Positions 14,678 through 18,810 of a stretch of 64,000 nucleotides of DNA are shown piece after piece. The notes beneath the pieces are model-generated. The model had not been told where the DNA came from. It saw nothing but the letters and a program-made list of their open reading frames with translations, and ran no database searches. This DNA comes from a virus, in the IMG/VR virus record IMGVR_UViG_3300020204_000006; one strand, written 5' to 3'. Position numbers and translations under genes: made by a program. The stretch's first letter is position 1; each line of letters starts with the position of its first letter.

Positions 14678-15273
14678 GAATATTTAAAAACAAAGATAAT
14701 TTTTCAAGTTCTATCTTTGGTTCTTCTGAAAAAAACGATACAGACAAAACAGTAAGTCCTAGCGAAGGTTTGTGGTCTAATTTTTTTAACAAAAAAAGTG
14801 AAGTTCTTGAAAATAGTCTTTTGCCAAATGCAAAAACAGTTTCTGGTAAACAGATGCCAGCTTCTGAGGGTTCGGGTTCTGCTCTTTTAAATTCTTCAAA
14901 ACTTGCTGGTTCTGATTTGTTCAATAAAAAAGTTTCAGATAAAACAAAGCAAGAAAGAACACAGGAAAAGCAAGAGCTTAAAAATAAATTGAGTTCTTTA
15001 GATAGAGAATACAGAGTTAAAACAACAGACGATACTCTAATACCAAAAATAAATAGCGTGTCTAAGTGTTCAAGTTCAGAGTCTGGCAAAACTTCTTCTC
15101 CTAAAAATTCAGTATCTATTTTTGATGATAATCCATTTGACGGTGTAAAAGATAGGGAGAAGATATCTAAAGCTCCAAGAGAAAAAAATCAATCAAAAAT
15201 GACTCCAGTTAAAACATCTGAAATTCTAGATAAGGTGTTTGATTCATTGAAGGGTAAGGAAAAAAATGCATAA
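14674..15273 (+). CDS. Hypothetical Ser/Lys-rich protein
   Basis: 199-aa ORF, overlap-coupled both sides. Confidence 0.7.
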   Translation: MRIFKNKDNFSSSIFGSSEKNDTDKTVSPSEGLWSNFFNKKSEVLENSLLPNAKTVSGKQMPASEGSGSALLNSSKLAGSDLFNKKVSDKTKQERTQEKQELKNKLSSLDREYRVKTTDDTLIPKINSVSKCSSSESGKTSSPKNSVSIFDDNPFDGVKDREKISKAPREKNQSKMTPVKTSEILDKVFDSLKGKEKNA

Positions 15274-16306
15274 GCCATCTAATTTTTTTAGTCTGGCTAA
15301 ATTTTCTCAGCTTTCAACGCAGAATTTATCTAGTCCGGTTTTTGAAAACGCAGAAAGTAGCACAGCCCCTGTTGAACAAAAATCTGAATCATCTCTTCCT
15401 GTTTTTGATGCAGGTGATTTTGACGGACAAAATATGCTTGAATCTGAAGGTTCTGATTCAAAAAATCTAAATTTTAATAACCACTTAGAGTTTTATAATT
15501 TTCTCAAAGATATTTTTGAAAAAAATAATAACGATTCAGCTGCTGCCTTTGACGAATCTTGGAATGGGATTCTTGCCCCCTTTCTTGGAGACTCTTCTGG
15601 GGCTTCCCAGGTTGAGGACGGGCTTAAAAGGTTTTTTAGCTCAGAAATAGAAAGCGAAGATGCGGTTGATCTTGTAAATGACATATTTTCTATATATTCA
15701 AGTTCTATAGGACCGGAGATTGAGCCAATCATGACACAAAAACAATCAAATGAAATTATAAACGATATGATAAAGAGATCAAGAGAATCTATTTCTATTA
15801 TAAGTGATTATATTTGCGATAATCTTGTTGGCAATTGCGACACAAGTAATAATTCTTCTATGAAGAAAGAAGCTCAACACAAAGGAATGGAGAATATTTA
15901 TTACTTTGGTCCAGAATCAGTTAGTGTAAGTCCTTTTACTAATGACATACAGTCTGGTCTTCATAGGGTTGAGCAGAATAAAGGTTTTGGACTTGTTTTA
16001 GATGACATTAAGGACTTGGATTATGAAGCCATATGGCGTCAAAATGTTATGGATAAATATACGCAGCCATATAGGGATGAAAATGGCAATTATGTTGGTG
16101 GTTATTTAAATAAAAGATTTGAAATTAATAGAAACATTGATCCAATAAATAATATGCAACTTCCTCCTGGTGTTCGCAACAGGCCTTATGTTCCAGAGCT
16201 TGGATTAACAGAAGCTCGTATGGAAGTTGCAAGAGGAAACAAAGATAAGTTATCAGATCCTTTTAGTTTGTCCAGTGTTGATTTGAATTTAAAAAAAAAG
16301 ATATAA
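15266..16306 (+). CDS. Hypothetical protein ending on a slippery A9 run
   Basis: 346-aa ORF; last codons TTA AAA AAA AAG ATA TAA. Confidence 0.75.
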   Translation: MHKPSNFFSLAKFSQLSTQNLSSPVFENAESSTAPVEQKSESSLPVFDAGDFDGQNMLESEGSDSKNLNFNNHLEFYNFLKDIFEKNNNDSAAAFDESWNGILAPFLGDSSGASQVEDGLKRFFSSEIESEDAVDLVNDIFSIYSSSIGPEIEPIMTQKQSNEIINDMIKRSRESISIISDYICDNLVGNCDTSNNSSMKKEAQHKGMENIYYFGPESVSVSPFTNDIQSGLHRVEQNKGFGLVLDDIKDLDYEAIWRQNVMDKYTQPYRDENGNYVGGYLNKRFEINRNIDPINNMQLPPGVRNRPYVPELGLTEARMEVARGNKDKLSDPFSLSSVDLNLKKKI

Positions 16307-16320
16307 CTAAGTCTGCCCAG

Positions 16321-16524
16321 TTGGATCTTTCTGGTTATGATTCTTATAAGGGCAGATCAAAATCGAACAATACTTACAAAAACTTAAAAAGAGTTTGTCC
16401 TATTTGCAACAGTGATAATTCTGCAGATACGTCGAAAAATAACAACAAGTGTGTTAATTGTGGAGCCTCTTTAAGAGGCGTTCCTTCTCAATTTGTATTT
16501 GCGATAGGTAAGAAAAAACAGTAA
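16321..16524 (+). CDS. Zinc-ribbon protein/domain, possibly the -1 frame extension of 15266..16306
   Basis: CPIC...CVNC; TTG start without SD; frame is open from 16282 across the A9 run. Confidence 0.6.
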   Translation: MDLSGYDSYKGRSKSNNTYKNLKRVCPICNSDNSADTSKNNNKCVNCGASLRGVPSQFVFAIGKKKQ

Positions 16525-16530
16525 AAATAA

Positions 16531-18810
16531 ATGGCAAAGAAAACAGAACAACAAATTAGTAGTGATTCGCTTAAGGACCAGAAAATGATTAATTCTGCCG
16601 TTGTAAATATGCCTCTAACAAAAGCTGCTCAGTATATGGGCGGTAGTGCATCTACCATATTTACTCAGCCCATGTTCTTTTCTCCGCTTCACACGCCTCA
16701 AAGTTGGCAAATTGCAAGCAAGAGAAAAGAAGTCTACCAGTGGTCTAGGTTCTATTATGAAAATGAACCAAAAGCTGCGGCAGGAATAGACTTTTACGCA
16801 GGCTTCCCAATGAATGGTTTTACTTTGGAATGCAAGGACAAAAAAGTACTTGCATTCTATGAGCATTTAATAGATAAAATAAATTTGAGTTATTGGTTTA
16901 GAAAAATATCTCACGAATATTTTTTACTTGGAGATGTGTTTGTTTTTACTGAAGTTGACTGTCCTCATTGCGGTGGTCATGGCGTTTTACCGGATGGCCG
17001 TCAGTGCAACCATCCTGATGGTACATTCAAGAGAATTCTTATTTTAAATCCTGATTTCATAGAAGTAAATAATTCTCAGCTTGCAGAAAAACCAACAATT
17101 GCTCTTATTCCTGATGATGATTTAAAGAAAGTTGTTCAACACAAAAAGCCCAAAGAAGTATATGAGAATATACCTCAAAACGTAAAAGACATGATATCTT
17201 CTGGCGCTGCCATACCTCTTTCATCAAGATGTGTGTCTCATTTGAGACACAAAGGCTCTCCTTACGGAGTCTATGGAGAGAGTCTTCTAAGAAGACTGTT
17301 TATGGTAATAGCATATAAAACCAAGCTGATGACAGCTAATTGGATAATGGCTGAAAGGCACATTCTTCCAATAAGAATAGCAAAAGTTGGAAATGATAAT
17401 CGTCCAGCTAGCGAATACGACATAGCTGATGTTCAGAGTCAACTTGCCTCTGTTGCAAATGACCCAAACTTGACAATAGTTACTCATCATGCTTTTGAAT
17501 TAATACACGAAGGTGCTACTGGAAAGATTCACGATATTGCTTCTCAGCTTGAGTACGTTGGTAAAGAAATGCTTGATGGACTGATGTTGAATCAGGGTCT
17601 TCTTAATGGTGAGCTTGCCGGGTACAGTAGCGTTGCCATAGGCGCAGAAACCATGATACGTAGACTTGAAACTTGGCGTCAAGAGCTTGCTGAATGGTGT
17701 GAGAAAAATATATTTCTTCCTATAGCACAGATGCAGGGTTTTGTTGATGTTTCTAAGTCTGAAATGATTAACGAAACAGTTTATCTTTATCCCAAGGTAA
17801 AGTGGAACGATCTCAAGCTCAGAGACAATAGTCAGTATTTGCAGAGTCTTTCGCAGCTTCACGACAAGGGTATAATATCAACACAAAAACTACTACAAGA
17901 ATTTAATATAGATTACGATCAAGAGATTAATAGAATAAGAGAAGAACAAATAGTCAGTGGTAAGGGAGGTCTTGTTCAGCAAGGGGCTGGTGGCGGTGGT
18001 GGTGGATTAGATCTTGGTATGGGCGGCGGTGGCCTTGATCTTGGTTTAGGTGGTGGAGGCGCACCTGGAGGAATGCCAGGAGATATGGGTCTTGGTGGAT
18101 TGGACATGGGAGGTGGCGCTCCGATGGGAGGTGCTCCCGCAGGAGGTGCTCCCGCAGGAGGTGCTCCCGTAGGAGGTGCTCCCGTAGGAGGTGCTCCCGT
18201 AGGAGGTGCAGTTGCTTCTCAAGAAGAATCTTTAAATTTGATAAAAGAAGCTCAGCAGCAACAGGGTATTAATCCAGATTTTAGAGTTTATAAAAAAGGT
18301 AAACAACCTAAAAAGGAAAACATAAAAGACCAGAAGGATCAAAAGCTTGCTCCAATATATTTGACAAAACCTGAACAAAAATTATATAATATAATTTCTT
18401 CTTTAAAATTGCCCTATAGAGTATTTGCTCAATACAAACAGGCAATACCAGGCCAAACGAATCCCTATCTTTTAGATTTTGCTATTCCTGACCTTGGTTT
18501 AAACCTAGAGGCTGATGGTGATTTTTGGCATTCTGATCCAGAAAGTATACAAAGAGATAAGGAAAGAGACTATAGACTCGCATCTATGGGGTGGAGAGTA
18601 ATTAGATTAAGAGAGGACGCACTTAATAATAGGGCAGATGTTTGCGAAACTATCATTAGAAATAATATACAAGATATTATTAATGAGAAAATGAAAAAAA
18701 GGTCTAATTCAGATGAAAATGAAATTATTATTAAGATATCATCCAATGATATGAAGGATGATATAGTAATAATTAAGAATTCTTTTGAATATGATCAAAA
18801 TAGCGGCTAA
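16531..18810 (+). CDS. Portal protein with Zn-finger-like insertion, Gly/Pro linker and C-terminal DUF559/Vsr-like endonuclease domain
   Basis: Position between terL block and protease/capsid; portal-like features (GDVFVF, ILILNP, PYGVYGESLL, PIRIAKVG, ISTQKLLQEFNIDYDQE); C-terminus PEQKLY..YLLDFAI..LEADGDFWH..RDKERDYRL..GWRVIRL. Confidence 0.85.
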   Translation: MAKKTEQQISSDSLKDQKMINSAVVNMPLTKAAQYMGGSASTIFTQPMFFSPLHTPQSWQIASKRKEVYQWSRFYYENEPKAAAGIDFYAGFPMNGFTLECKDKKVLAFYEHLIDKINLSYWFRKISHEYFLLGDVFVFTEVDCPHCGGHGVLPDGRQCNHPDGTFKRILILNPDFIEVNNSQLAEKPTIALIPDDDLKKVVQHKKPKEVYENIPQNVKDMISSGAAIPLSSRCVSHLRHKGSPYGVYGESLLRRLFMVIAYKTKLMTANWIMAERHILPIRIAKVGNDNRPASEYDIADVQSQLASVANDPNLTIVTHHAFELIHEGATGKIHDIASQLEYVGKEMLDGLMLNQGLLNGELAGYSSVAIGAETMIRRLETWRQELAEWCEKNIFLPIAQMQGFVDVSKSEMINETVYLYPKVKWNDLKLRDNSQYLQSLSQLHDKGIISTQKLLQEFNIDYDQEINRIREEQIVSGKGGLVQQGAGGGGGGLDLGMGGGGLDLGLGGGGAPGGMPGDMGLGGLDMGGGAPMGGAPAGGAPAGGAPVGGAPVGGAPVGGAVASQEESLNLIKEAQQQQGINPDFRVYKKGKQPKKENIKDQKDQKLAPIYLTKPEQKLYNIISSLKLPYRVFAQYKQAIPGQTNPYLLDFAIPDLGLNLEADGDFWHSDPESIQRDKERDYRLASMGWRVIRLREDALNNRADVCETIIRNNIQDIINEKMKKRSNSDENEIIIKISSNDMKDDIVIIKNSFEYDQNSG
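18127..18201 (+). repeat. 5 x 15-nt tandem repeat GGAGGTGCTCCCG(C/T)A encoding GGAP(A/V)
   Basis: Two units with GCA, three with GTA, in frame in the portal linker. Confidence 0.95.

Follow-up and report, generated by a model that had tools for sequence, protein, structure and literature searches.

Recoding in phage structural genes is established for the tail chaperones and for a few capsid genes. The lambda G/GT tail assembly chaperone and T7 10A/10B each give a short and a C-terminally extended protein in a fixed ratio, and both use slippery heptamers. In the E. coli dnaX and IS3 cassettes, the stimulators are an upstream Shine-Dalgarno (SD)-like element and a downstream stem-loop at a distance of 5-9 nt.

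Two products can also arise when RNA polymerase slips on a homopolymer. The hybrid within RNA polymerase is 9-10 bp long. According to published reports, slippage works efficiently where 9 A/T stand in a row and adds one or more A's, in diminishing proportion (PMC5009743). Transcriptional slippage on a 9-base A/T run underlies the tau and gamma products of Thermus thermophilus dnaX (PMC5009743). In Citrobacter rodentium, an A11 run before the stop codon of tssM1 leads to two length variants through transcriptional slippage, both of which are needed (PMC4256274).

We analyzed a 64-kb stretch of DNA from a huge lake phage (hereafter the window), in which the feature of interest is the end of the gene directly 5′ of the portal gene. 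This gene ends on a run of nine A's (A9), which is very probably a genuine two-product recoding site, whether the slip is transcriptional or ribosomal. As to the mechanism, we lean toward slippage by RNA polymerase, which the comparison of related sequences makes the somewhat likelier reading.

The site resembles Thermus dnaX in having a run of 9, two predicted products with a common N-terminus and stops near the run in the short-form frames, and in that no RNA structure appears to be needed. It differs in that the Thermus gene encodes a clamp-loader subunit and the gene here an unrelated phage head-block protein, in that the shifted product in most loci here would be the long form and not the short one, and in that the case for slippage is built on sequence. 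With C. rodentium tssM1 and Yersinia tssM it shares a poly-A run directly 5′ of the zero-frame stop, where an extra A restores a C-terminal domain, and tssM likewise concerns a large assembled machine, one related to phage structures. Both tssM forms and their ratio are needed, and we propose the same logic here. The gene families are different, and slippage in tssM rescues an interrupted gene in a few strains, whereas the split layout here looks like the ancestral majority state over hundreds of lineages.

As in the E. coli dnaX/IS3 cassettes, A_AAA_AAG lies in phase in the window and the direction is −1. However, we see no conservation of the stimulators of those cassettes (in the window, 10 nt separate the hairpin from the heptamer), the run always exceeds the heptamer, and the +1 and in-frame layouts found in related loci do not fit a cassette of this kind. 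The likeness to lambda G/GT and T7 10A/10B is that of a phage structural gene for which a fixed ratio of short to C-terminally extended protein is proposed. Unlike the lambda G/GT-type genes, which lie between tail tube and tape measure, the gene here adjoins the portal gene on its upstream side; it has a homopolymer of at least 9 where lambda G/GT and T7 10A/10B have heptamers, and we found no sequence similarity to them.

The features of the window are listed here by position and strand.

15266..16306, + strand: zero-frame ORF of 346 aa (predicted short product), ending ..VDLNLKKKI and then a stop
16291..16299, + strand: A9 run, the putative slip site, with T on its 5′ flank and G on its 3′ flank
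16288..16300, + strand: two in-phase heptamers, T_TTA_AAA (16288-16294) and A_AAA_AAG (16294-16300)
16300..16524, + strand: −1 frame extension of 74 codons plus stop, starting DITKSAQLDLSG and ending ..QFVFAIGKKKQ and then the stop
16321..16323, + strand: TTG, the mechanical start of a 67-aa ORF; read here as Leu within the extension and not as a start
16311..16357, + strand: local hairpin (GTCTGCCC / GGGCAGAT), 10 nt past the heptamer; present in the window, not a conserved element
16531..18810, + strand: portal gene with a C-terminal DUF559-like nuclease domain, directly 3′; context, outside the recoding site

The 346-aa ORF ends with T TTA AAA AAA AAG ATA TAA. A preliminary description of this DNA had reported this ending, two in-phase heptamers and a −1 frame open from 16282, and all three were found where it had placed them. 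The −1 frame has no stop from 16282 until 16522-16524 and reads FEFKKKDITKSAQLDLSG..CPIC..CVNC (in a longer excerpt, ..KKKDITKSAQLDLSG..CPIC..CVNC). The A9 run (16291-16299) specifies KKK in both frames. Of the two heptamers, only A_AAA_AAG sits entirely inside the conserved run plus its G. T_TTA_AAA, also in phase in the window, is not conserved: it is C_TTA_AAA in one relative (L088) and GAT GTA AAA in another (L086). The product sizes given in the preliminary description, 346 and about 419 aa, also agree with our computation, in which residues 1-345 and the 74-codon extension make up a 419-aa long product.

We propose that standard decoding yields the 346-aa protein, with its stop two codons past the run, and that a fraction of expression proceeds as if the run held one A more, so that the reading would continue in the −1 frame. 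The long product would then consist of residues 1-345 and a 74-aa tail with a C4 zinc ribbon. The likeliest mechanism is that RNA polymerase stutters on the nine-T template run, which would produce mixed mRNAs (A9, A10, A11 and so on), each translated normally; ribosomes may add to this by a −1 slip of tRNA-Lys on A_AAA_AAG. We infer that both products are made and that the slip takes place at transcription; the run, the frame layout and the tail themselves are conserved across the sequences that we compared.

The A9 run is the sole A9/T9 run on either strand of the 64 kb. In dinucleotide shuffles of the window, 17.6 ± 6.6 such runs are expected and at least one was present in 100/100 shuffles, so the run goes beyond what chance would provide in an AT-rich genome.

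The run is also a 9-base homopolymer in which one more A would join the frames, and the preliminary description had offered, as its alternative, a one-base assembly error in a single 419-aa gene, the true sequence being A10. The stretch is contained in 20 lake-water metagenome runs. Contigs of ~4.4 kb from four of these runs reproduced A9, not A10, with 0 differences and 0 gaps over 16000-16800; the window itself may come from one of these four samples, and minority variants do not show in contigs. We reject a homopolymer error in assembly or sequencing because of these four assemblies, and the comparison with other loci is the stronger argument. About 65 diverged loci, each assembled independently, show the identical split, and in 132 of 186 family representatives the protein terminates within 10 aa of KKK. 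An error of this kind is practically out of the question.

Homologues of the 346-aa protein number 39 in a clustered protein collection, an exhaustive profile search returned 355 clusters at 50% identity, and 80 loci in IMG/VR carry the homologous gene. Among the carriers are several phage genomes of 461-548 kb that are complete or nearly so. We compared five close relatives of the window at the DNA level, and the wider comparison comprised 78 non-duplicate loci with 30-95% protein identity.

An unbroken A run stands at the homologous KKK in 77 of the 78 loci (A9 in 29, A10 in 41 and A11 in 7), and it is never shorter than 9. Its 5′ base is T or C, and its 3′ base is G in 70 of the 78. In the protein alignment (A1), K343 and K344 are almost invariant. 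Homologous extensions come after the run in other loci as well: one frame past it is open for 70-250 codons, nearly always with a CxxC..CxxC pair (71/78 loci), and the other two frames are shut within 0-6 codons (median stop distance 0-3, whichever of three frame layouts the locus has). In 34 loci, a TAA formed by the preceding T and the first two A's of the run shuts the continuing frame, which confines the frame overlap to the run.

The codons and the surrounding sequence both indicate that the A's themselves are retained. Elsewhere in these loci, KKK is coded entirely by AAA in 3/160 cases (1.9%), where codon use predicts 28%; at this site the figure is 100%. The spectrum of A/T runs in the loci drops steadily to 65 runs at length 8, and runs of length 9, 10 and 11 then number 38, 43 and 7, almost all of them being this site. 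In a complete relative of 498,568 bp the site is the genome's sole A9/T9 run, a 494-kb and a 334-kb record have three each, and such runs are rare in four complete or near-complete relatives of 461-548 kb. The comparative evidence is unusually clean: in as much as half a megabase of genome, no other long A run is tolerated. As judged from these comparisons, the run is kept beyond what the protein sequence requires. Homologues had been proposed as a check, and they are split at the same point, with the run kept, over ~78 diverged loci. The main claim of the preliminary description, that a programmed shift or slippage on A9 joins the 346-aa ORF to the zinc-ribbon frame, thus gains strong support from the comparison.

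The loci fall into three layouts according to the frame that continues past the run. It is the −1 frame in about 65 loci, the window and its clade included, as well as L061 and L076 (both A10); it is in frame with the upstream ORF in 11; and it is the +1 frame in 2 (L090 and L091, both A10), with a third +1 case (P0009) deduced from a protein tail alone, KKKRAE followed by the stop. The in-frame loci have a fused ORF, keep A10 or A11 and show the exact Thermus dnaX layout (L029, L044, L070 and others). Besides the 132 family representatives that end no more than 10 residues from KKK, 39 of the 186 have KKK followed by an in-frame zinc ribbon, 4 are fused without KKK and 11 are of other kinds, mostly fragments. 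The run lies in different phases, from 0 to 2, with respect to the frame upstream. Only the A9, phase-2 class (21 loci) has A_AAA_AAG in phase; the other −1 loci have A_AAA_AAA. To place the in-frame state on a tree built from the conserved domain takes 9 changes, of which well-supported branches force no fewer than 4.

Since the long form needs no shift in the in-frame loci, the run there must serve to make the short form. In terms of inserted A's, the long form would come from +1 A in the −1 layout, from 0 or +3 in the in-frame layout and from +2 in the +1 layout. The in-frame and +1 layouts could partly stem from assembly or from variation within populations.

Close relatives can differ by one A in the run, as do L022 (A10, −1) and L044 (A11, in frame), whose junctions are almost identical, and the in-frame layouts are scattered across the tree. 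Both observations would fit phase variation at the DNA level, in which the run is a contingency tract and each genome encodes either the short or the fused protein, without recoding. We consider this very unlikely. The layout is stable at 60-95% identity in the window clade, in L003/4/7/10, in L005-L015 and in L067-L079. Only A9 was seen in four independent assemblies (as contigs, which drop minority variants), and no fused form of the window clade is on record. We looked for fused long forms that carry the zinc-ribbon tail of the window itself and found none, a result of little weight by itself. The downstream frame of the split genomes is, moreover, under coding constraint, though phase variation would leave it silent in most genomes.

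A two-product site could also be dispensed with if KKK were simply a conserved C-terminus and the zinc ribbon a separate gene, translated from TTG 16321 or by translational coupling. The window does contain a 67-aa ORF with a TTG start, and a gene caller predicted a 65-aa gene in L084. However, this TTG lacks an SD, as the preliminary description had noted (there is no GGAG-like motif upstream), and it is CTA (Leu) in L084 and L088. In 21 of the 64 out-of-frame zinc-ribbon loci, no ATG, GTG or TTG follows the run before the first CxxC is reached; 37 have no ATG ahead of the zinc ribbon, and a start codon with an SD-like motif is present in only 6. Independent initiation of the zinc ribbon, which had been named as a finding that would speak against recoding, is rejected because many loci lack a start codon and because the TTG is CTA in close relatives; the start-codon counts over the 64 loci exclude it as a general mechanism.

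The protein sequence across this segment tells against a separate gene as well. Between the window, L084 and L088, the changes 5′ of TTG 16321 are synonymous in the −1 frame (AAG/AAA, GCC/GCA, TTG/CTA). A K.AQL motif, conserved at the protein level, often precedes the zinc ribbon in the continuing frame and stands ahead of any start. In the fused in-frame homologues both parts form one protein, and the difference in all-AAA coding of KKK between this site and the rest of the loci is a further argument against an ordinary C-terminus. We therefore regard a separate gene as highly improbable.

A purely ribosomal −1 frameshift of the dnaX/IS3 type, acting on a faithful A9 mRNA, is a more substantial alternative, and we consider it possible, though on the unlikely side. 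Two tRNA-Lys would slip back on A_AAA_AAG (or A_AAA_AAA), with a hairpin or pseudoknot helping. In E. coli, no heptamer is more prone to shifting than A_AAA_AAG (PMC5009743). The window and the 21 loci of the A9, phase-2 class have it in phase, the other −1 loci have A_AAA_AAA in phase, and the −1 layout predominates (about 65/78 loci). In the window, RNAfold predicts an 8-bp outer stem from 16311, with a dG of −16.9 kcal/mol and a z of −2.2, which begins 10 nt past the heptamer. Over the loci, the 70-nt stretches 3′ of the run are slightly more structured than controls (mean z −0.81 vs −0.15), with z below −2 in 21% of the downstream stretches and in 8% of the controls.

The preliminary description had proposed a stem-loop and a pseudoknot here. 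Their pairings exist in the window, TCTGCCC (16312-16318) with GGGCAGA (16350-16356) and ATAACT (16303-16308) with GGTTAT (16333-16338), but a conserved stimulator they are not. Across six close relatives, 66.7% of the cells in the stem and pseudoknot are paired, and shuffles give 64.2%. There is no covariation, and L088, whose protein identity is 87%, has a broken stem. The regions downstream of the run in 76 loci share neither a structure nor a spacing, and many loci have no downstream structure at all (dG 0 to −5, with inconsistent spacing). An SD-like GGAG/GAGG/AGGA at 4-20 nt upstream occurs in only 4/78 loci, and none is present in the window.

Other properties of the run itself are at odds with a purely ribosomal shift. 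Seven bases suffice for a heptamer, yet the run never falls below 9; a +1 or −2 change is required in two sequenced loci and in the third case, the one deduced from a protein tail; and the run is kept in eleven in-frame loci. If the ribosomal shift were of low efficiency, the repeated flips of layout would invert the product ratio. The minimum run of 9, the variable phase, the three layouts and their repeated flips all favor slippage by RNA polymerase. For the same reasons (a run of at least 9, a phase that varies, and in-frame and +1 layouts that keep the run), slippage on the A9 run fits better than a −1 shift stimulated by structure. A ribosomal contribution in the window is nevertheless quite possible, since in the window clade the run is in the A_AAA_AAG phase and a fairly stable hairpin follows 10 nt on. 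Explanations other than transcriptional slippage and a ribosomal shift are, even taken together, improbable.

As for the polymerase that would slip, a search of five large relatives for the canonical RNA polymerase beta subunit (PF00562) gave no match, and divergent phage RNA polymerases could escape it. A search of four complete or near-complete relatives for a T7-type RNA polymerase (PF00940), run with no positive control, gave no match.

The 346-aa protein matched no Pfam family and no PHROG family, and tblastn against 50,697 phage records found no match. Against PDB sequences nothing was better than E 0.09, and Foldseek searches of PDB and BFVD with models of the protein gave nothing below E 1. 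AlphaFold modeled the whole protein at a pLDDT of 56, and the conserved half, with 80 sequences, at a pLDDT of 69.5 and a pTM of 0.34. A Cj0814-family look-alike in the ESM Atlas (score 0.92, 153 shared features) is a weak match within the range of chance matches and was discarded, as was gp11 of phage G, the gene 5′ of its portal, as a homologue (hhalign probability 0.1). We found no relative among 185,579 GTDB species genomes, and hence no cultured host or prophage. It is the C-terminal half of the protein that is conserved, with the motifs EQNKGFG, WRxNVMDKY and GNYVGGY..RFE.

In the window, the zinc-ribbon extension (CPIC..CVNC, 16396-16461) has the characteristic two CxxC knuckles ~15-20 residues apart. 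Its best Pfam match is PF08271 (E 0.0012), at 18.8 bits against a cut-off of 29, and the zinc-ribbon matches of the longer C-terminal tails of relatives are all sub-threshold in Pfam as well. The long forms finish with a conserved C-terminal ..DLAIDG-like motif immediately 5′ of the portal gene. The portal gene itself matches phrog_16240 (1.9e-45) and PF06074 (4.4e-08), and the nearest cultured relative of its product is the portal of Bacillus phage G (28.7% identity). Because the 346-aa gene sits in the head block directly 5′ of the portal gene, its protein may be head- or portal-associated, with a set fraction of copies bearing the zinc-ribbon tail; the slip would then set the ratio of tail-less to zinc-ribbon-tailed protein.

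The class of mechanism is known; the gene family and its position are new to the literature that we searched, in which we found no paper on this family, its position or its slip site. A large undescribed family adjoining the portal of huge phages would thereby be added to the recoded phage structural genes. More tentatively, programmed transcriptional slippage may here be met for the first time in a structural (head-block) gene of tailed dsDNA phages, at a site long kept in >300 lineages, mostly of huge phages, as a ratio-setting device that could work in any of the three layouts, with the zinc-ribbon/..DLAIDG tail as a portal or prohead docking module on a set fraction of copies; as a whole, this picture has somewhat less than an even chance of being right. 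If it is true, the layout can flip in evolution without the loss of either product. The −1, in-frame and +1 layouts, side by side, amount to a natural experiment on product ratios set by slippage.

Where a genome avoids long homopolymers, a single exception is a simple, general flag for recoding sites. Annotations are wrong at this one: gene callers give either a spurious 67-aa gene with a TTG start or a gap of 220 nt; in 5/8 loci, from four of the five close relatives, a stretch of ~220 nt was left unannotated.

Runs of nine A or T residues are very rare in the four large phage genome records that underlie the relative loci L020, L032, L038 and L040 (G001-G004; 461-548 kb, complete or near-complete), which contain between 1 and about 15 each. 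No canonical RNAP beta-subunit domain was detectable in these same four records. Two metagenomic relatives have a second A9 run about 60 nt 3′ of the first (L086:2627-2635 and L087:2627-2635); it sits within the zinc-ribbon frame (..GRSKKNN..) and is confined to one close clade.

Each of the four lake runs contained 31-base unitigs that differ from window positions 16282-16312 at three bases; their depth was 260-380x, compared to approximately 20x for the phage contig. These unitigs represent either more abundant relatives that share the slip site or low-complexity k-mers.

From the window and the family protein alignment (A1), we noted three copies of an FNL-K-x-AQ motif in the slip-gene family:

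15284-15313, copy 1, close to the N-terminus of the slip-gene protein
15860-15886, copy 2, immediately ahead of the conserved C-terminal half
16270-16320, copy 3, at the slip site

At copy 3, the upstream frame supplies FNLKKK and the continuing frame K.AQL. The head-block proteins adjoining the slip gene carry the motif as well. Its possible roles are cleavage by a prohead protease or docking.

At the C-terminus, the tails of the long forms finish with the conserved motif ..[S/C]xDL[A/E/G][I/L][D/N]G-stop, and the portal gene follows directly. This ending was seen in L001:3801-4316, L016, L032, L034, L035 and L062 and in family proteins P0048 and P0181. The short tail of the window ends in ..FVFAIGKKKQ instead.

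The window portal (16531-18810) has a DUF559/Vsr-like endonuclease domain at its C-terminus (PF04480, 3.3e-07), preceded by a Gly/Pro-rich linker. Intein-like inserts split the portal genes of two relatives (L001:5634-6653 and L002:4559-6643), and in L001 the slip gene is additionally separated from the portal by an inserted 403-aa transposase- or nuclease-like ORF.
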